In this document: piece after piece, positions 3,979 through 55,227 of the stretch | How positions within the stretch are numbered: the first letter of the stretch is position 1 | Layout: each line of letters starts with the position of its first letter | Origin: Escherichia coli | GTDB taxonomy: Bacteria > Pseudomonadota > Gammaproteobacteria > Enterobacterales > Enterobacteriaceae | Assembly: GCF_050920415.1 (NCBI RefSeq) | Contig: NZ_CP169309.1 | Length of the DNA stretch: 64,000 bases | Reading direction: 5' to 3' (one strand) | Program-made: the position numbers and the translations under genes | The notes under the pieces: generated by a model | What the model was told of the DNA's origin: nothing | The model's database searches: none | The model's input: the letters and a program-made list of their open reading frames with translations, nothing else

Positions 3979-6669
<2,691 letters not shown>

Positions 6670-27974: not shown

Positions 27975-30404
27975 TCATGAATACTTTTTCGTCCGTCGCG
28001 TCGGTGCGGTATTTGCCGGATCATCCGGCCAGACGTGTTTGGGATAACGCCCTTTCATCTCTTTTTGCACATCGCAATACGCTCCTTTCCAGAAGGCGCT
28101 CAAATCTCGTGTGATTTGCAGCGGCCTTTGGGCAGGAGAAAGCAACTCCAGCACCAGCGGCACACGCCCCTGGGCGATCGTCGGATTGGTGGCCTCGCCA
28201 AACATCTCCTGCATTCTCACCGCCAGCGCGGGCGGGTTATCTTCATGGTAACGAATGGCGATCCGGCTTCCCGTCGGCACAGTGTAATGCGCAGGCAATT
28301 CACTATCCAGACGTTGCTGCATCCCCCAATCAAGTAATCCGCGTAGCGCCTGATAAATATCGAGTGATTTCAGGCCGCGTAGCGAATGTACGCCTGCCAT
28401 ATGCGGCAGTAGCCACGTTTCCAGCGTCGCCAACAAACTTTCATCATCAACCGCTGGCCAGTCATATTCTGGCAACCACCTGGCGGCGCATAACAAACGC
28501 AAGCGTAGCTGTTCCGCTTCCGGCGTCCAGTTAAGCACGCTTAAGCCTTTTTCACGAATGCCGTTAAGCATCGCCTGATGCAGCTCGTCTTCTGAAGGCT
28601 TCGCCAGCGGCTGCACTTTTACCGTCAGTTGGCCGATTTGCAACCGACGCCAGGCTTTCAGCGTACCTTGCGCATCATCCCACTCCACGGTGTCCGATTG
28701 CTGCACCAGCTGCGGACAGCGTTGCACTAATTCATCGATATCGACCGGTAGCGCCAGTAAAATCCGCGCATCCGGCGAGGCGCTACCCTGCAATAATAAC
28801 GGTGCGATCAACCATTCGTGGCGGCTGAGCGCATCATCGGCATCGAGCATTGCCCCCATGCCGTTTGCCAGTTGATAGCGCCCCTCTTGCCCACGGCGGC
28901 GAGCGATGCGATCGGCAAACGCTCCGGCAAGTAACGGTGCGATAAGCGAACTGTCTGCCTCACCGCCGCGTACGTTTAAGCGCTTTAACAGTTGCTGGCT
29001 ACGTTGCTGCCAGGCAGGTTGATTGCGCGAAAACGCCACGCCCAGATCGATATTGCCCATCCGTGGTGGCTCTTCGAGAATAGCGGCAATTTTTGCAGCG
29101 GTAGCAGCTTCGTCGTCGCTCTTTGCGCTCACCAGCATTGCCGCTAAACGCGGATCGTTACCCAGCGTCGCCATTTTCTGCCCTTTCGTGCTTAGCCGTT
29201 CACCGTCCATCGCCCCCAGCATCCGCAACAGGCGTTTCGCGGCCTGTAAATTCACGGCTGGCGGTTGATCCAGCCAGCTCATCTGCGTCGGATCGCTGCA
29301 TCCCCATTGCAGTAATTCCATCAGCAAACCGGAGAGATCGCTTTGTAAGATTTCCGGTTCACTTTGCGCGGAGGCGCGTTCTGCTTGTTCTTTGGCGATT
29401 AAATGTAGACAGATCCCCGGCTCCAGACGTCCGGCACGCCCCGCACGCTGCGTCATAGATGCCTGACTAACGCGTTGAGTAATCAGCCGCGTAAGCCCCG
29501 TGCGCGGATCAAAGCGCGCCACACGTTCCTGAGCACAATCCACCACCAGACGAATACCTTCGATGGTTAAACTGGTTTCAGCAATATTGGTTGCCAGCAC
29601 TACTTTGCGCATCCCTTCTGGTGCCGGAAGGATCGCTTTTCGCTGATCGTTCAGCGACAACGCGCCATACAGCGGGCAGAGCAACACATCACTACCGATG
29701 CGCGAAGCCAGTTGTTCCTGAACGCGCTGAATTTCTCCGACACCAGGTAAAAATAACAGTAATGAGCCGCTTTCCTGATGCAGCAATTCGGCGGTGGCAA
29801 CCGCCACGGCTTCATCAAAACGCTGATGAGCGGGCAGCGGTAAATATCGGCGTTCAACCGGAAACGAGCGCCCTTCTGAGATGACGACGGGCGCTTCTGG
29901 CAGCATCTGCTGCAAGCGGTCATTGTCCAGCGTAGCCGACATAATCAGTAGTTTAAGGTCATCACGCAGACCTTGTTGCACATCGAGTAACAGCGCCAAC
30001 GCCAGATCCGCCTGCAAGCTGCGCTCATGAAACTCATCGAGGATCACCAATCCAACGCCGCTCAGTTCAGGGTCACGCTGGATCATGCGCGTCAACACGC
30101 CTTCGGTAACTACTTCCAGGCGAGTATTTGGCCCGACACAGTTTTGCGCGCGCATCCGGTAGCCTACCGTATCACCTGTTTTTTCGTTAAGCAGTTCCGC
30201 CAGTCGTTGCGCAACGTTACGCGCCGCCAGGCGACGCGGCTCCAGCAGGATAATTTTTCCGTTAATGCCGGGATGCGCCAGCAGTTGCAGCGGCAGCCAG
30301 GTTGATTTCCCGGCCCCGGTCGGCGCACTTAATAACACCTGCGGTGCACCATCGAGGGCAGCAAGTAACTCAGGTAAGACGGCAGCAACGGGCAACGACG
30401 ACAC
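27975..30404 (-). CDS. hrpB: ATP-dependent RNA helicase HrpB (DEAH-box)
   Basis: about 809 aa assuming a GTG start (VSSLPVAAVLPELL...); Walker A TGAGKST, DEFH box; alternative ATG start at 30449. Confidence 0.85.
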   Translation of the reverse strand: MSSLPVAAVLPELLAALDGAPQVLLSAPTGAGKSTWLPLQLLAHPGINGKIILLEPRRLAARNVAQRLAELLNEKTGDTVGYRMRAQNCVGPNTRLEVVTEGVLTRMIQRDPELSGVGLVILDEFHERSLQADLALALLLDVQQGLRDDLKLLIMSATLDNDRLQQMLPEAPVVISEGRSFPVERRYLPLPAHQRFDEAVAVATAELLHQESGSLLLFLPGVGEIQRVQEQLASRIGSDVLLCPLYGALSLNDQRKAILPAPEGMRKVVLATNIAETSLTIEGIRLVVDCAQERVARFDPRTGLTRLITQRVSQASMTQRAGRAGRLEPGICLHLIAKEQAERASAQSEPEILQSDLSGLLMELLQWGCSDPTQMSWLDQPPAVNLQAAKRLLRMLGAMDGERLSTKGQKMATLGNDPRLAAMLVSAKSDDEAATAAKIAAILEEPPRMGNIDLGVAFSRNQPAWQQRSQQLLKRLNVRGGEADSSLIAPLLAGAFADRIARRRGQEGRYQLANGMGAMLDADDALSRHEWLIAPLLLQGSASPDARILLALPVDIDELVQRCPQLVQQSDTVEWDDAQGTLKAWRRLQIGQLTVKVQPLAKPSEDELHQAMLNGIREKGLSVLNWTPEAEQLRLRLLCAARWLPEYDWPAVDDESLLATLETWLLPHMAGVHSLRGLKSLDIYQALRGLLDWGMQQRLDSELPAHYTVPTGSRIAIRYHEDNPPALAVRMQEMFGEATNPTIAQGRVPLVLELLSPAQRPLQITRDLSAFWKGAYCDVQKEMKGRYPKHVWPDDPANTAPTRRTKKYS

Positions 30405-32396: not shown

Positions 32397-33323
32397 ATGC
32401 TCCCGCCTTATTTTTTGTTCAACGAGATGACAGACACACACTATATTGGTCGCTTCGCCCCCTCTCCTTCTGGCGAGCTTCATTTTGGCTCTCTGATTGC
32501 CGCGCTTGGAAGCTTTCTACAGGCTCGCGCCCGGCAAGGTCGCTGGCTTGTTCGCATTGAAGATATCGATCCGCCTCGTGAAGTTCCCGGTGCCGCAGAG
32601 ACCATCCTGCGCCAGCTGGAACATTACGGTCTACACTGGGACGGCGATGTTCTCTGGCAATCGCAACGTCACGACGCCTATCGCGAAGCACTCGCATGGT
32701 TACATGAGCAAGGGTTAAGTTATTACTGCACCTGCACGCGCGCACGTATTCAAAGCATTGGCGGTATTTACGACGGTCATTGCCGGGAGTTGCATCATGG
32801 GCCAGAAAACGCTGCTGTACGTATTCGCCAGCAGCATCCGGTCACCCAGTTTACTGACCAGCTGCGCGGCATTATTCATGCCGACCAAAAACTGGCGCGG
32901 GAAGATTTTATTATTCATCGCCGTGATGGTTTATTTGCCTATAACCTGGCGGTGGTCGTTGACGATCACTACCAGGGCGTGACAGAAATTGTCCGTGGCG
33001 CGGATTTGATCGAACCCACGGTGCGCCAAATCTCGCTGTACCAGCTTTTTGGCTGGCAGGTGCCAGATTACATTCATTTGCCACTGGCACTTAATCCACA
33101 AGGCGCTAAACTTTCCAAGCAGAATCATGCGCCTGCGTTGCCAAAAGGCGATCCTCGGCCGGTGTTAATCGCGGCACTTCAATTTCTGGGCCAGCAGGCA
33201 GAAACACACTGGCAGGATTTCAGCGTCGAGCAAATTCTCCAGTCAGCCGTCACAAACTGGACGCTGACTACCATTCCTGACTCGGCAATTGTAAATTCAA
33301 CATTCTCAAATGCGTCATGCTGA
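32397..33323 (+). CDS. gluQ: glutamyl-queuosine tRNA(Asp) synthetase (GluRS paralog)
   Basis: 308 aa; class I aaRS HIGH-like motif ([11 protein letters not shown]) and KLSKQ; alternative start at 32427. Confidence 0.85.
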
Positions 33324-33382: not shown

Positions 33383-34780
33383 ATTTTTACCCGAGTCGCT
33401 AATTTTTGCCGCAAGGTGCTAAGCCGCGAGGAAAGCGAGGCTGAACAGGCAGTCGCCCGTCCACAGGTGACGGTGATCCCGCGTGAGCAGCATGCTATTT
33501 CCCGCAAAGATATCAGTGAAAATGCCCTGAAGGTAATGTACAGGCTCAATAAAGCGGGATACGAAGCCTGGCTGGTTGGCGGCGGCGTACGCGACCTGTT
33601 ACTTGGCAAAAAGCCGAAAGATTTTGACGTGACCACCAACGCCACGCCTGAGCAGGTGCGCAAACTGTTCCGTAACTGCCGCCTGGTGGGTCGCCGTTTC
33701 CGTCTTGCTCATGTCATGTTTGGCCCGGAGATTATCGAAGTTGCGACCTTCCGTGGACATCACGAAGGTAACGTCAGCGACCGCACGACCTCCCAACGCG
33801 GGCAAAACGGCATGTTGCTGCGCGACAACATTTTCGGCTCCATCGAAGAAGACGCCCAACGCCGCGATTTCACTATCAACAGCCTGTATTACAGCGTGGC
33901 AGATTTTACCGTCCGCGATTACGTTGGTGGCATGAAGGATCTGAAAGACGGCGTTATCCGTCTGATTGGTAACCCAGAAACGCGCTACCGTGAAGATCCG
34001 GTACGTATGCTGCGCGCGGTTCGTTTTGCCGCCAAATTGGGCATGCGCATCAGCCCGGAAACCGCAGAACCGATCCCACGCCTGGCAACCTTGCTAAACG
34101 ATATTCCTCCGGCGCGTTTGTTTGAAGAATCTCTGAAACTGTTGCAAGCGGGCTACGGTTACGAAACCTATAAACTGCTGTGTGAATACCATCTGTTCCA
34201 GCCGCTGTTCCCGACCATTACCCGCTACTTTACGGAAAATGGTGACAGTCCAATGGAGCGGATCATTGAGCAGGTGCTGAAGAATACTGACACGCGTATT
34301 CATAACGATATGCGCGTCAACCCGGCGTTCCTGTTTGCCGCCATGTTCTGGTATCCCCTGCTGGAAACAGCACAGAAAATTGCCCAAGAGAGCGGCCTGA
34401 CTTATCACGACGCTTTCGCGCTGGCAATGAACGATGTGTTAGACGAAGCCTGCCGTTCACTGGCGATCCCGAAACGGCTAACCACTTTAACCCGTGATAT
34501 CTGGCAATTACAGTTGCGCATGTCCCGCCGTCAGGGTAAACGCGCATGGAAATTACTCGAACATCCGAAGTTCCGCGCCGCTTATGACCTGCTGGCACTG
34601 CGTGCTGAAGTAGAACGCAACGCCGAGCTACAACGTCTGGCGAAATGGTGGGGTGAGTTCCAGGTTTCCGCGCCGCCAGACCAAAAAGGGATGCTTAACG
34701 AACTGGATGAAGAACCGTCACCGCGTCGTCGTACTCGTCGCCCGCGCAGACGTGCGCCGCGCCGTGAGGGCACCGCATGA
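33383..34780 (+). CDS. pcnB: poly(A) polymerase I
   Basis: 465 aa if initiated at the ATT codon at 33383 ([13 protein letters not shown]...), with GAGGTG Shine-Dalgarno 7 nt upstream; the track ORF begins at an in-frame TTG at 33362. Confidence 0.85.
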
Positions 34781-35253
34781 CAGTGGCGTATATTGCCATC
34801 GGCAGCAATCTGGCCTCTCCGCTGGAGCAGGTCAATGCTGCCCTGAAGGCAATAGATGACATTCCTGAAAGCCGCATTCTTGCCGTTTCTTCGTTTTACC
34901 GCACCCCACCGCTGGGGCCGCAAGATCAACCCGATTACTTAAACGCAGCCGTGGCTCTGGAAACCTCTCTTACAGCAGAAGAGCTCCTCAACCACACACA
35001 GCGTATTGAGCTGCAACAGGGTCGTGTCCGCAAAGCTGAACGCTGGGGACCGCGCACGCTCGATCTTGATATCATGTTGTTTGGTAATCAGGTCATAAAC
35101 ACTGAGCGCCTGACCGTTCCGCACTATGATATGAAGAATCGTGGATTTATGTTGTGGCCGCTGTTTGAGATCGCGCCGGAACTCGTGTTTCCTGATGGTG
35201 AAACGTTGCAAGCAAGACTCACTACTTTCCCTCCCAGCCCACAGCACTGGTAA
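34777..35253 (+). CDS. folK: 2-amino-4-hydroxy-6-hydroxymethyldihydropteridine pyrophosphokinase
   Basis: 158 aa [25 protein letters not shown]...; overlaps the pcnB stop. Confidence 0.9.
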
Positions 35254-35758
35254 ACCACATTCCTGGAAAAACGTATTGGGTAATGCAATGTTGTATAATA
35301 TTATTTTATAGTTTCAATGAATTAATTCTCTCTCCCCCATCATATAAATCACAAAAAAACAGCATTAAAAATATAATTACGGCAAATATATTTTCATTAC
35401 CTATATTAACTTTTCTCTTTATAAGAGGTTTTTAATGATAATTAACCAATTTATTCTGAGTACTATGCCTCACTCCCGGTATTAGCACTGGATAGCACTT
35501 AATTGGATTCTGTCAGGCTGGGACGGGGGCAACAAGTGCATACAACGACCTGTCCTTAACGCGTAATTATTAATTTCTACAGCGTATTATCACATTATTT
35601 AAACCTGCCCAACCTCACCAAATACATTCATAAAATGCATAATTATAATAAATCATAAAAATCCATTCACCGAAGATATTTTTCTTTAAAGAGTGTGGCA
35701 TTTATAATAAGTTTTGGTGAGAAAATTCACCACCATTAATTTTAATAAGGATATTTCT
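35254..35758 (+). promoter_or_regulatory. 505 bp AT-rich upstream region of the fimbrial operon
   Basis: strongly AT-biased by eye (long A/T runs, TATAAT-like hexamers) against a GC-balanced surrounding; typical of nucleoid-protein-silenced fimbrial promoters. Confidence 0.5.
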
Positions 35759-36325
35759 ATGTTAAATAAAAGTGCTATTGCTGCGGCATTAGTCATGTTC
35801 ACCAGTTCAGCCTTCGCGCTTGATGGCGGTCAATTAGATTTCTCAGGTTTGGTCAGTGACAATACCTGCGCCCTGCACGTCAACGGTGGCGCGCAGGACG
35901 GTCAAATTACTCTGCAAACCGCTACAACCGCTGAAGTTAATGGCGCAGGTGTCGTAAAGACTGCCGACGTTGGTGCAAAACCGGAAGCCTTTTCTATTGC
36001 GATAGATTGCTCGGGCGATCCAAAAAATAACGCCAGTCTGAGCATGGGTTCTGTGTTCTTCAGTAACAGCCAGGGCACTCTGAACAACGATCTCTCTATC
36101 AGCCAGGCGGCAACCGGGGTCGCTATTGCCATTCACTACCTTACCAATGCCACCACCTACCAACAGGTGAAAGTTAACGACAGCACCGATGTTAAAAACC
36201 TTGTGTTTACCAACGGCAAAGCGGTTTACAACTTTAAAGCGTCGTATGTTAAACAGGCAGCAACAGTTGACGCAACGGCAGGTTATGTCAAAACCAACGC
36301 CGCTTATACAGTGACTTATCAGTAA
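35759..36325 (+). CDS. yadN: fimbrial major subunit (type 1 pilin family)
   Basis: 188 aa from MLNKSAIAAALVMFTSSAFA (signal peptide) with AAGGA RBS; conserved Cys pair; C-terminal ...YTVTYQ donor-strand motif; symbol by synteny. Confidence 0.75.
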   Translation: MLNKSAIAAALVMFTSSAFALDGGQLDFSGLVSDNTCALHVNGGAQDGQITLQTATTAEVNGAGVVKTADVGAKPEAFSIAIDCSGDPKNNASLSMGSVFFSNSQGTLNNDLSISQAATGVAIAIHYLTNATTYQQVKVNDSTDVKNLVFTNGKAVYNFKASYVKQAATVDATAGYVKTNAAYTVTYQ

Positions 36326-36381
36326 ATCTCTGCATCACCCGACAGCCCACTGCTGTCGGGTAACTCAATAAGGATAGTGTT

Positions 36382-37125
36382 ATGACCAGGATGTGTCAGT
36401 TTGTTGTTTCCGCTGTTTTCATCGCATCGACAGCCGTTTTCAGCCTCACCGCGCAAGCAGATATCGTGCTTTCCGGTACGCGCATTATTTACAATGCAGA
36501 CCAGAAAGACGTTACTTTGCGCATGGAAAACAAAGGCGCCCGCCCATTATTAGTCCAGACCTGGATTGATACCGGCAGCGAGAATGCCGACCCCAGCACA
36601 TTGAAAGTGCCTTTTACCGTGACGCCACCGGTTTCCCGCGTTGATGGTAAAAAAGGCCAAACGGTTAAAATTGCGTGGAACGCCAGCCAGACCCTTCCAG
36701 CCGATCGCGAAAGCATTTATTGGTTCAATGCGCTGGAAGTTCCCCCCAAGATGAGCGATGCCGATGCCAAAGGAAAAAACATTCTGCAACTGGCTTTCCG
36801 CACCCGTATCAAGCTGTTCTATCGCCCAACCGGTCTGGCGGGTAACCCGGCTGATGCACCAAAACAGTTAACCTGGCGTCTCCAGTCTTCAGCCGGAAAA
36901 GTGGTGCTGCAGGCGACAAACCCTACGCCTTATCACGTCTCATTCAGCAGCATTACCCTTGGCTCAGGCGGTAATAAATATACCGTGGAGACCAGTATGG
37001 TCGCACCCATGAGCAGTGCGGAAATGGTGGTAAAAGGCGCTCCCCGTTCTGTGTCTGGTGCAACAGTTGATTACTCCGCCATTAATGATTTTGGCGGTGG
37101 CATTGACGGCCAAGTCAAACTTTGA
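36382..37125 (+). CDS. yadV: periplasmic fimbrial chaperone (PapD-like)
   Basis: 247 aa; signal peptide; chaperone motifs GTRIIY...LLVQTW and FRTRIKLFYRP. Confidence 0.85.
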   Translation: MTRMCQFVVSAVFIASTAVFSLTAQADIVLSGTRIIYNADQKDVTLRMENKGARPLLVQTWIDTGSENADPSTLKVPFTVTPPVSRVDGKKGQTVKIAWNASQTLPADRESIYWFNALEVPPKMSDADAKGKNILQLAFRTRIKLFYRPTGLAGNPADAPKQLTWRLQSSAGKVVLQATNPTPYHVSFSSITLGSGGNKYTVETSMVAPMSSAEMVVKGAPRSVSGATVDYSAINDFGGGIDGQVKL

Positions 37126-37157
37126 TGCCCACAAATTATATCGGCTGAGATCGTACA

Positions 37158-39764
37158 ATGAAGCTCCCCTACGATGGCAAAAAAATTCAACGATCGCCGC
37201 TCGCTTGCCTGATTGCGTGCAGCCTGCTGCCCTGTACTCAAAATGTGTGGGGGGCAGACGAGACCGTTGAGTTTGATAACACGTTCCTGATGGGCGCAGG
37301 CGCCAGGGATATTGATGTCAATCGTTACAGCAAAGGTAACGCAACATTACCTGGACGCTATGACGTCAGCGTGTTTATTAATAACCAGGCCAGCGCCAAT
37401 CTGAAAATCGAGTTTATTGAATTAGACCCTAAACACGCTGCTCAACCCTGCATCTCCGCGAACACGTTATTACAGCTGCATATTCGCCAGCCAGAAAAGC
37501 TAACGGATAACGCAATTTTGCAAAAACGCGAAAATGCTGCGCAGGATTGCCTCAACCTAGAGGTTGCTATTCCGCAATCAAGCGTCGCTTACAACAGCAA
37601 TGATCAGCGGCTTGATATCAGCATGCCGCAAATCTGGCTGCAAAGAACCTATGCCAACTATGTCGACGCCTCACTCTGGGATGAAGGCATCAATGCCGCA
37701 ATGCTCTCTTACACCCTTAACGGCTGGCGCAGTGAATCCCCCAATCAAACCACAGAAACCAGCTACGCCGGACTAATGGGCGGTATCAATTTATGGGGAT
37801 GGCATTTTCGCTCACATGGTAACTATTCGTGGGACAAAGAGGACGGCGGCAGTTTTGAATTTCAGGATAAATACCTGCAACGCGATATCGCCGCGCTTCG
37901 CTCTCAACTGGTGATGGGTGAAACCAATACCACAGGAGAAACCTTCGACTCGGTTCCTATTCGCGGGATGCGACTCTATAGCGAAAGCCGCATGTTGCCA
38001 CCCACGCTGGCATCGTATGCTCCCGTTATCCGTGGCGTGGCAAACTCTAACGCGAAAGTCACGATCACCCAAAACGGCTATAAAATTTATGAAACGACCG
38101 TGCCACCAGGGCCATTCGCGATTGACGATCTCACTCCGGCAGGGTTCGGTGCCGACCTCGAAGTGACCATCACCGAATCGGACGGCTCAAAGCGTACGTT
38201 TAGTCAGGCCTATTCATCGGTGATCCAGATGATGCGTCCCGGCGTAGGCAAATGGGATATCAGCGGCGGTGAGGTCAATAAAGAGGAACTTCAGGATAAA
38301 CCGAACCTGCTGCAAGGGACCTACTATTACGGATTGAGCAACACCTTCACCGGCTACACTGGTCTGCAAATGACCGATAACGGCTACTGGGCCGGTTTAC
38401 TGGGGGTGGGGATGAATACATCGCTGGGCGCATTCTCCTTCGATGTTACTCAGTCTCATGCCGAAATCCCTGACGATAAAACTTATAGTGGGCAGAGCTA
38501 CCGTATTTCATGGAATAAATATTTCGCCCCGACCGAAACGTCACTCAACATTGCCGCCTATCGCTACTCCACTGAAAACTATCTGGGGCTAAACGACGCG
38601 TTAACGCTGATTAATTCAGCCAATCATCCTGATGAAGAGGACTACTCGGGTATTGTCAGTTATGCGCGCATGAAAAATCAGTTCAGCGTTAGCATTAACC
38701 AAACGTTAAAAAGTGATGAACGTGACTATGGATCTTTCTATGTGAATGGCACATGGACAGATTACTGGGTAACCAACGAATCACAGAGCAGTTTTTCCTT
38801 TGGCTACAGTAATTCCTTTAACTGGGCGAGCTACAGCGTCAGCCTGCAACGCACATACGATGAAGACAATAAGAAGGATGATTCAGTTTACCTGAGCGTG
38901 ACCATTCCGCTTGATAAACTGCTGGGTCGTGATAGCCGCCAGGGTGGCTTCAAAACGCTGAACACCAGCGTTAACAGCGATATGAAAGGGAGTTCGCAAT
39001 ATAACGCCATTGCCTCGGGCTACAGCCAGGATAATCGCTGGAGTTACAGCGTGAATACCGCCTATAACGCGCAGAAAAACAGTGACAGCCTGAAAAGTAT
39101 CAGCGGTTATACCAGCTATGAATCGCCGTGGGGAACATTTTCAGGCTCAGCCTCCACCAGTAGCGATCACTCACGTCAGTATGGGCTCAGCACCGATGGC
39201 GGTTTTGTACTCCACCGCCACGGTCTGACCTTCAGTAACGACAGTTTTACCGACTCTGACACGTTGGCGCTGATCAACGCCCCCGGTGCAAAGGGCGCGC
39301 GCATTAACTTTGGTAACAGCACCATCGATCGCTTTGGGTACGGCGTGAGCAGTTCACTGTCACCGTATCGGGAAAATACTGTCGTGCTCGATGTTAACGA
39401 TCTGGATAACGACGTGGAGCTCAAAAACACCAGTAGCATCGCCATTCCGCGCCAGGGTTCCGTCATTTTCAGCCATTTTGACACCGACACCGGGCGTTCT
39501 GCCATTCTCAATTTACTGCGCAGCAACAATCAGCCCGTGCCGTTTGCTTCTGATATTACCGACGAAAAAGGGACCTCTATCGGGACCGTCGGACAGGGTA
39601 GTCAGGCATTTGTACGTGGTATTGCCGACAGCGGTGAATTGACGGTCACCTGGTATGAGAAAAATAGTCGCCAGCAGTGCCGTATTCATTATCAGATACC
39701 GTCATCACCCACCATGACCGGTAAAACTATCGTACTCAACGGCGTGCCATGCACCCAGCAATAA
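37158..39764 (+). CDS. htrE: outer membrane fimbrial usher
   Basis: 868 aa, signal peptide, usher-size beta-barrel protein in the canonical operon position. Confidence 0.85.
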   Translation: MKLPYDGKKIQRSPLACLIACSLLPCTQNVWGADETVEFDNTFLMGAGARDIDVNRYSKGNATLPGRYDVSVFINNQASANLKIEFIELDPKHAAQPCISANTLLQLHIRQPEKLTDNAILQKRENAAQDCLNLEVAIPQSSVAYNSNDQRLDISMPQIWLQRTYANYVDASLWDEGINAAMLSYTLNGWRSESPNQTTETSYAGLMGGINLWGWHFRSHGNYSWDKEDGGSFEFQDKYLQRDIAALRSQLVMGETNTTGETFDSVPIRGMRLYSESRMLPPTLASYAPVIRGVANSNAKVTITQNGYKIYETTVPPGPFAIDDLTPAGFGADLEVTITESDGSKRTFSQAYSSVIQMMRPGVGKWDISGGEVNKEELQDKPNLLQGTYYYGLSNTFTGYTGLQMTDNGYWAGLLGVGMNTSLGAFSFDVTQSHAEIPDDKTYSGQSYRISWNKYFAPTETSLNIAAYRYSTENYLGLNDALTLINSANHPDEEDYSGIVSYARMKNQFSVSINQTLKSDERDYGSFYVNGTWTDYWVTNESQSSFSFGYSNSFNWASYSVSLQRTYDEDNKKDDSVYLSVTIPLDKLLGRDSRQGGFKTLNTSVNSDMKGSSQYNAIASGYSQDNRWSYSVNTAYNAQKNSDSLKSISGYTSYESPWGTFSGSASTSSDHSRQYGLSTDGGFVLHRHGLTFSNDSFTDSDTLALINAPGAKGARINFGNSTIDRFGYGVSSSLSPYRENTVVLDVNDLDNDVELKNTSSIAIPRQGSVIFSHFDTDTGRSAILNLLRSNNQPVPFASDITDEKGTSIGTVGQGSQAFVRGIADSGELTVTWYEKNSRQQCRIHYQIPSSPTMTGKTIVLNGVPCTQQ

Positions 39765-39780
39765 TGTTCCAGGAGAGGAA

Positions 39781-40353
39781 ATGAGAACTTTTTTACTACC
39801 GCCCCTGCTGCTGCTGACGTCGCTTTGTCTCCGCCCTGCACTGGCAACCGATCTTTCGGTCAACTTTACCGCAACAATCAAAGAGACGACCTGTGCCATG
39901 ACGCTCAATGCATTGAATGGGGCCAATATCAGCGGTGATGCCACAGCGAATAACTATTATCTGGATCTGCCTGACATGGGCGTTTCGGACATTGTGAATA
40001 AATCGTCAATGTCGGAGGCTAATTTTAAAATCCTTCCCAGCAATTGTAATAACTATATTTCCAGCATGTCGATGACGCTTAATGGCGCAGTCAGCGGCTA
40101 TACAGATTCGTTAATCGCTAATGACCAGACCGTTTCGGGGCATACCAACTATGTTGGTCTTGGTATTAAACGTATGAACGCAAATGAAAATCTCCGTTTT
40201 AAACTCAACGGTAGCCAGCGAGTCACCTGGACGAGTGATGAAATAAGTAATGGATTGGATCTCACTGCCATGCTTCGTCAGACCACCACAGCGAATCCGA
40301 TCACCACTGGACAATTCCAGGCCAAAGTGACTTTCGTCTTTACCTACGAATAG
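39781..40353 (+). CDS. yadM: fimbrial minor subunit
   Basis: 190 aa, signal peptide, C-terminal ...VTFVFTYE. Confidence 0.75.
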   Translation: MRTFLLPPLLLLTSLCLRPALATDLSVNFTATIKETTCAMTLNALNGANISGDATANNYYLDLPDMGVSDIVNKSSMSEANFKILPSNCNNYISSMSMTLNGAVSGYTDSLIANDQTVSGHTNYVGLGIKRMNANENLRFKLNGSQRVTWTSDEISNGLDLTAMLRQTTTANPITTGQFQAKVTFVFTYE

Positions 40354-40358
40354 CAGGT

Positions 40359-53832: not shown

Positions 53833-55227
<1,395 letters not shown>

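Follow-up and report, generated by a model that had tools for sequence, protein, structure and literature searches.

The window, by which we mean the whole 64,000-nt stretch of Escherichia coli contig NZ_CP169309.1 analyzed here, is 100% identical to E. coli MFDS1022581 (NZ_CP169399), from which the annotation of pcnB, folK and a neighboring fimbrial operon was taken. Its genes run in the order fhuA-mrcB-hrpB-thpR-sfsA-dksA-gluQ-pcnB-folK, followed by a seven-gene chaperone-usher operon (35759-42775) and by panB-panC. The features discussed below are listed with their coordinates in the window, their strand and, in brackets, the basis of the assignment.

33383-34780, plus strand: pcnB, in which divergence from K-12 rises near 34078 (NZ_CP169399 annotation)
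34777-35253, plus strand: folK, encoding HPPK, 158 aa (open reading frame, Pfam, structure match and annotation)
35017-35088, plus strand: putative junction zone, a conserved coding stretch in folK beyond which the gene is no longer shared with strain 2017-02-2CC, of like backbone and unlike cassette (pattern of mismatches between the window and that strain)
35089-35199, plus strand: codons 105-141 of folK, the part of the body that appears linked to the cassette (nucleotide identity, dS and dN)
35200-35253, plus strand: hypervariable FolK tail, codons 142-158, plus the stop codon (translation and tail comparisons)
35254-35758, plus strand: A+T-rich spacer with 29-37% GC, the presumed regulatory region of the operon (composition)
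35736-43905, plus strand: block 99.6% identical in Pseudocitrobacter vendiensis, running through the complete operon and panB to 200 nt into panC
35759-36325, plus strand: fimbrial major subunit, at the YadN position (annotation, PF00419)
36391-37125, plus strand: fimbrial chaperone (annotation, PapD_N, PapD_C)
37158-39764, plus strand: outer-membrane usher, 60% identical to K-12 HtrE (annotation, Pfam and comparison)
39781-40353, 40365-40961 and 40962-41534, plus strand: three minor fimbrial subunit genes (annotation and Pfam)
41561-42775, plus strand: two-domain tip adhesin, at the YadC position (annotation, Pfam and comparison)
42894-43688, plus strand: panB on the right flank, with about 87-90% identity to K-12 (annotation and identity)

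Further along the window, about 1.3 kb between gcd and cueO (53924-55201) have no K-12 counterpart. This segment holds a 215-aa open reading frame on the minus strand (54361-55008) that presumably resembles an IS110-family transposase, shorter than full length.

Domain score, structure match and conserved residues identify the folK product as a member of the HPPK / FolK family (PF01288). Residues 5-134 cover all 116 positions of the Pfam HPPK profile and score 131.6 bits, the gathering cut-off being 25.7. Solved E. coli HPPK chains (8SIF, 1HKA and related entries) match residues 1-149 with E=2e-89, the HMMER alignment of the window FolK to the K-12 structures ending at residue 149. An alignment of 40 sequences that includes the window FolK shows no variation at D96, D98, R83, R93, H116, Y117 and R122 (numbers counting Met1); in mature-protein numbering we take the catalytic and Mg-binding residues of HPPK to be Asp95/Asp97, Arg82, Arg92, His115, Tyr116 and Arg121. 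The motifs invariant in the 40 homologues are all present in the window FolK, which over residues 1-141 is 95% identical to the K-12 enzyme of known structure (1HKA, 1Q0N, 8SIF).

The initial annotation, made from the letters alone, had proposed that the folK 3' end departs from the K-12 sequence. Pairwise alignment bears this out: 134 of the 141 residues of the body are identical between the window and K-12, the seven differences lying at positions 26, 27, 33, 36, 66, 67 and 105, compared with 5 of 18 aligned columns (28%) in the tail, where the window is one residue shorter. The K-12 ending that the annotation had given for comparison was correct and equals the translation of folK from NC_000913 (ending ...PDGEMLRQILHTRAFDKLNKW; end as read from NC_000913, EMLRQILHTRAFDKLNKW). 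The same annotation had described the body as near-identical to K-12; this holds for the protein and not for the DNA, since nucleotides 1-423 of folK carry 37 mismatches (91% identity). In the translation the tail codons occupy 35200-35250 and the stop codon 35251-35253, and nucleotide alignment of the window is lost at 35209 against K-12 and at 35224 against E. coli ATCC 8739. Relative to K-12, the window tail has three prolines in place of part of the K-12 tail. An AlphaFold model built from 40 sequences retains a helix at residues 144-150, and we take it as support for that helix only, its mean pLDDT being only 71 and residues 154-158 being unconfident (<50 pLDDT).

Such a tail might in principle come from a sequencing or assembly error, or from a frameshift, at the folK 3' end. 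We give this practically no weight: the same tail is present in 14 independent complete genomes, the length of the open reading frame is conserved with the terminal Trp kept, and the DNA differs by substitutions, with no indel that would restore the K-12 frame.

Downstream of folK, the operon shows Pfam matches to Fimbrial, PapD_N/C and PapC_N/Usher/PapC_C domains, with no Pfam match for the minor subunit gene at 40365-40961. It occupies the same folK-panB position as the Yad locus of E. coli (yadN-yadV(ecpD)-htrE-yadMLKC) and Salmonella Sta, and it has the same seven-gene order, namely major subunit, chaperone, usher, three minor subunits and two-domain adhesin. On position and gene order the operon can be classed as Yad-type. 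At the level of sequence it differs strongly from the Yad operon of K-12: at the nucleotide level only the usher gene can be usefully aligned (about 65%), and over 849 aa its protein shares only 60% identity with HtrE of K-12. More generally, ushers of different cassette types have only 54-81% protein identity. The initial annotation had also placed the folK tail at the edge of a variable fimbrial segment, and the tail does lie at its left edge.

A second level of hypervariability was observed inside the cassette. The adhesin (41000-42800) is 65-83% identical to the window or unalignable in the same-cassette genomes R32_14_1F, RMDEC465 and EC42405, in which the other parts of the operon are 92-96% identical; it is the most divergent gene even within one cassette type.

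K-12 is one tail among many. ATCC 8739 FolK has a third tail, EMLQNRLTILNTSQPVIW, and E. coli 2017-02-2CC and E. whittamii have a FolK tail in common, ETLQVILTKLNTIQPEIW. The tails of the 120 closest database proteins, from Escherichia, Citrobacter, Salmonella and Pseudocitrobacter, fall into more than 40 distinct sequences, with a terminal Trp in all but a few aberrant or truncated entries. Across the 40 aligned sequences, W158 never changes, L144 and L148 are kept in at least 90%, and the rest of the protein after residue 141 is variable; the window tail keeps L144, L148, a hydrophobic residue at 151, the Pro at -4 and the terminal Trp. The FolK tail of the window is one of dozens of Escherichia tail alleles, for which K-12 is not a unique reference. 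Across 5,426 complete E. coli genomes, the combination of the window tail with its fimbrial cassette type was found in 14; besides the window genome itself, 13 complete genomes have this tail, with Cys for Ser154. The K-12 type of tail plus spacer was found in 2,946. By these counts, the window carries a rare cassette type with its own tail.

Divergence of the window from K-12 begins well before the tail. In a change-point test, divergence is 2.1% before and 10.4% after approximately 34078 in pcnB, about 1.1 kb upstream of the tail, with control regions at about 96-97% identity. There is no sharp step at the FolK tail in this comparison, identity remaining at about 90% from approximately 34078 until the alignment is lost. 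As a separate observation, the regions flanking the operon on either side diverge unevenly from K-12: identity is 91-92% in parts of hrpB (28400-29600), 87-90% in gluQ (32800-33200) and 87-92% in panB and panC (42894-44560), with dksA and the 5' part of pcnB at 97-99%. Raised divergence therefore continues past the cassette for several kb, as a mosaic.

The key comparator is strain 2017-02-2CC, which has the same backbone as the window and another cassette: the PcnB proteins are identical, the flanks are 97-100% identical, and the operon and tail are different. Between the two folK genes the first 179 nt are identical, mismatches are sparse up to 35058 and they are dense from 35089. The maximum chi-square split falls at 35089, with 37 mismatches in 1712 positions (2.2%) on the left and 26 in 120 (21.7%) on the right (Fisher p=5.6e-16). 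Nucleotides 1-312 of folK are 97.4% and nucleotides 313-423 are 80.2% identical, and dS is 0.11 over codons 1-104 and 2.5 over codons 105-141, with dN of 0.05; compared with the other cassette type, codons 105-141 are saturated at synonymous sites and conserved in protein. In the tail, pN is 0.29. The jump in mismatches and in dS suggests that in the window strain the junction between backbone and cassette-linked sequence falls around codon 95-105, some 110-160 nt before the tail.

Other strains point to another position. K-12 and ATCC 8739 have identical FolK bodies and unlike tails; as far as codon 144, 7 mismatches separate the two over 1,832 nt, and from there on the tails are unalignable and the operons different. 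Taken with the window strain (near codon 95-105), this junction exactly at the tail suggests that the position varies from event to event, yet falls inside folK. The initial annotation had conjectured a recombination breakpoint in the folK 3' end. Junctions inside folK do exist, as K-12 and ATCC 8739 demonstrate; in the window strain the change-point is at approximately 35089 (codon 105), about 110 nt upstream of where the breakpoint had been placed. The FolK tail is hence not the crossover site in this strain. It is the place where cassette-linked divergence surfaces in the protein, since beyond the Pfam HPPK domain (residues 5-134) the sequence is weakly constrained.

Plain vertical divergence would explain the tail without any recombination, the window belonging to a diverged E. 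coli lineage in which the tail had drifted. In its favor, control regions of the window are only about 96-97% identical to those of K-12 and of nearly all other E. coli. We nevertheless regard this as very improbable: strains with the pcnB-folK backbone of the window have another tail together with another cassette, K-12 and ATCC 8739 share the folK body and differ in the tail, and the change-point at 35089 is sharp (p=6e-16). With an abrupt, statistically supported change-point and a 3' segment that co-varies with the cassette, the window folK would instead qualify as a mosaic gene. The 3' segment follows the cassette rather than the backbone in four contrasts, with one exception, P. vendiensis.

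Two candidate refinements of the mosaic were rejected. Nucleotide conservation of the junction zone (35017-35088) is 0.87-0.91 and other parts of folK are equally conserved, which argues against this zone as a unique, most-conserved crossover hot spot. An inter-genus origin of the folK 3' segment was also discarded, since the nearest relatives of nucleotides 313-423 are still Escherichia (87-90%), and no foreign donor could be named in the nearest-relative comparison for this segment of either the window or 2017-02-2CC. The folK of E. whittamii (6001-6480) is itself a three-part mosaic: nucleotides 1-270 are <86% and nucleotides 313-423 are 98% identical to K-12, and the third part encodes a tail protein identical to that of E. 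coli 2017-02-2CC.

Does the tail type follow the cassette type? All 14 complete genomes with the window tail have the same major subunit type and the same start of the chaperone gene, where the query ends; the full operon was compared in four of the 14. Strains with the same backbone and another cassette have another tail (window and 2017-02-2CC; K-12 and ATCC 8739). Conversely, another backbone with the same cassette has the same tail: between E. whittamii and E. coli 2017-02-2CC the operons are 90-96% and the flanks 84-92% identical, and the tail is identical. In this detailed comparison, which covers a handful of E. coli alleles, these contrasts suggest that tail type mostly follows the chaperone-usher operon and not the chromosomal backbone.

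The exception comes from a different genus. The type strain P. vendiensis CPO20170097T (CALSBS010000004.1, 8705-16874) carries the block 35736-43905 with 31 mismatches in 8,170 nt, none of them after 42139, in a backbone that is 77-80% identical to the window. The left junction of the block, at 35736, lies 23 nt before the start codon of the major subunit and downstream of folK, and the right junction lies inside panC at approximately 43906. Because the left crossover is downstream of folK, P. vendiensis has retained its own FolK tail beside the transferred block; an additional, native subunit gene is also still present. Since panB in the block resembles Escherichia far more than the inter-genus baseline would predict, the block was probably acquired in a recent inter-genus transfer with an Escherichia of the window haplotype as donor. 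Cassette exchange thus appears to be recent and genus-crossing, with the folK tail carried along usually, not always.

Metagenomic contigs were rejected as evidence of recombination. Logan contigs L009 and L010 (P0002) join a Klebsiella-like 5' half of folK (78%), near 35040, to a 3' half, tail and spacer that are 96-100% cassette-like. Their N-terminal 103 residues recur in nine other short metagenomic contigs (P0121-P0129) with nine different C-terminal halves, and several of the tails are identical to, or one residue off, FolK tails of Enterobacter or of the Klebsiella oxytoca group. One N-terminal half combined with many C-terminal halves and with tails of known species is the signature of assembly chimeras, most likely formed at a conserved coding stretch, and serves as a warning against using such contigs as evidence of recombination.

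We extended the comparison to the family by scanning species-representative Enterobacteriaceae genomes, which gave 80 folK loci. In 67 of these, panB follows folK after 66-124 nt, and the encoded protein ends in KPxxW in 62 of the 67, typically as L(G/N)AEKPAxW. This ending is found in none of 15 folK alleles that are followed by a chaperone-usher operon (11 from the scan and four from E. coli; Fisher p=1.6e-12, uncorrected for phylogeny), the 15 coming from few genera, namely Escherichia, Pseudocitrobacter, some Citrobacter and Superficieibacter. Mean pairwise identity of the tails is 0.53 without and 0.26 with an operon, compared with 0.85 and 0.905 for the bodies. The conserved panB promoter region of the operon-free genera is found to the right of the operon in the window, which places the operon directly after, or at, the folK end.

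These observations bring up the idea that insertion of the operon, or an illegitimate swap, overwrote the last folK codons, leaving tails of foreign DNA whose reading frame stayed open by chance. The loss of KPxxW from every operon-bearing allele is what such non-homologous replacement would produce, the location of the panB promoter region puts the insertion point at or next to the folK stop codon, and tails of the K-12 type resemble the adjacent spacer in being A+T-rich, with many Lys, Asn and Phe residues. Against it, the tails retain a protein length of 158-160 aa, the spacing of L144 and L148, mostly the Pro at -4 and always the terminal Trp; the tails of the window, ATCC 8739, CP053258 and Pseudocitrobacter form a graded series (xRLTxLxxxxPxxW), as expected from a common tail; and nucleotide divergence climbs gradually upstream of the tail rather than starting there. 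We consider replacement unlikely. Given the conserved length, spacing, Pro and Trp and the graded series, we read the operon-bearing tails as homologous, deeply diverged versions of one tail and not as foreign DNA, and the window tail is still homologous to the ancestral FolK tail.

The tail is more constrained than its diversity between alleles implies. Between E. coli 2017-02-2CC and E. whittamii it has accumulated 6 synonymous and 0 non-synonymous changes, which indicates purifying selection on the FolK tail within one type. The 'weak constraint' of the tail accordingly holds between types and not within a type, where purifying selection is stronger than expected.

This purifying signal between two species sharing one cassette type, together with the tracking of cassette type by tail type, is also what would be seen if the tail, or its 50 nt, were functionally coupled to the cassette, as regulatory sequence or by modulation of HPPK, and each tail were selected. 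Each cassette type might then carry a selectively maintained FolK tail, either with a cis-acting last ~50 nt, for which read-through, an upstream promoter element or silencer nucleation are possible roles, or with a tuning of HPPK stability. Several results speak against coupling. Promoter-like sites in 35150-35800 are at chance level (4 against 3.1 expected), the same region has no terminator signal above chance, and the spacer and tail region has no match to an Rfam family; a single weak terminator-like hairpin, at 35715-35732, falls inside the alternative start region of the subunit open reading frame. In P. vendiensis the operon works with, or at least adjoins, another tail and an intervening extra subunit gene. 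Finally, it is the protein sequence that shows the purifying signal, and HPPK, an enzyme of the cytoplasm, is not known to have any link with fimbriae. We hold both the coupling and the selective maintenance of each tail to be unlikely.

The reading that we prefer is deep allelic divergence linked to the fimbrial cassette and visible in the protein only where FolK is weakly constrained; we put its probability at roughly 70%. The folK-panB interval would hold an old chaperone-usher operon, the 'yad' locus, in the form of many deeply diverged allelic cassettes, which homologous recombination would swap between lineages and even species, with crossovers in the conserved genes to either side, pcnB/folK at the left end and panB/panC at the right. 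DNA adjoining the cassette would share its deep divergence, and recombination in the folK body would uncouple the rest of the gene from it. In most of folK the divergence would stay silent because the enzyme is strongly constrained, and it would lead to amino-acid change in the last 17 codons because these lie outside the HPPK catalytic domain and are weakly constrained. Diversifying selection on fimbriae may keep the cassette types apart, as the polymorphism of yad suggests (PMC13245861, PMC4850163).

Three things were observed directly: the differences in sequence, the change-points, and an association of the tail type both with the cassette type and with operon presence. That linkage and weak constraint caused the divergence of the tail is what we infer from them. 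Two points fit imperfectly, namely the strong purifying selection within a type and the loss of KPxxW in every operon-bearing allele, and they leave room for the two minority readings, tail replacement at insertion and a functional tie between tail and operon.

The setting agrees with what has been described for yad. The locus has been characterized as ancient, core-associated and highly polymorphic, and as shared with Salmonella, where Sta occupies the same position (PMC3559732, PMC13245861, PMC4850163); it has been placed in the common ancestor of Escherichia and Salmonella (PMC3559732). A survey based on at least 80% usher identity found 70% of genomes Yad-positive, with phylogroups D and E largely negative (PMC13245861). 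The reference for this 80% criterion was the EC958 HtrE (PMC13245861); the window usher, with its 60% identity to K-12 HtrE, would fall short. As an aside, the window genome would count as 'Yad-negative' despite a complete operon at the yad site. The 'Yad-negative' groups may simply carry diverged cassettes. The terms folK and panB have zero occurrences in PMC13245861 and PMC4850163; in the searchable literature we found no earlier description of the folK/yad mosaic, a full-text search for folK, panB and fimbrial returning nothing relevant.

In kind, the phenomenon is a known one, a mosaic housekeeping gene beside a hypervariable surface-structure locus, and it involves no new mechanism. Nelson and Selander in 1994 reportedly described gnd, beside the O-antigen (rfb) cluster of E. 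coli and Salmonella, as a mosaic, hitch-hiking housekeeping gene. Like folK, gnd is a metabolic gene that is itself conserved and borders a polymorphic, cassette-like locus, with raised divergence, intragenic recombination junctions and alleles common to several species. The two differ in that the folK neighbor is a fimbrial operon and not a polysaccharide cluster, and in that the effect on the protein is limited in folK to a 17-residue tail outside the catalytic domain.

On the reading preferred here, the left boundary of the hypervariable yad locus would lie inside folK, between about codon 105 and the stop codon, and the tail of an essential folate enzyme would be polymorphic as a consequence. 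The FolK tail type could then serve in typing as a cheap marker of the fimbrial cassette type, and surveys based on an identity threshold would miss diverged cassettes at the yad locus. Should the less probable selective maintenance of each tail prove true, the folK-panB interval would be a dedicated cassette-exchange site with a functional left recombination arm. More broadly, folK would be a further clear example of the rule that a housekeeping gene turns mosaic when its neighbor is a diversifying surface-structure locus.
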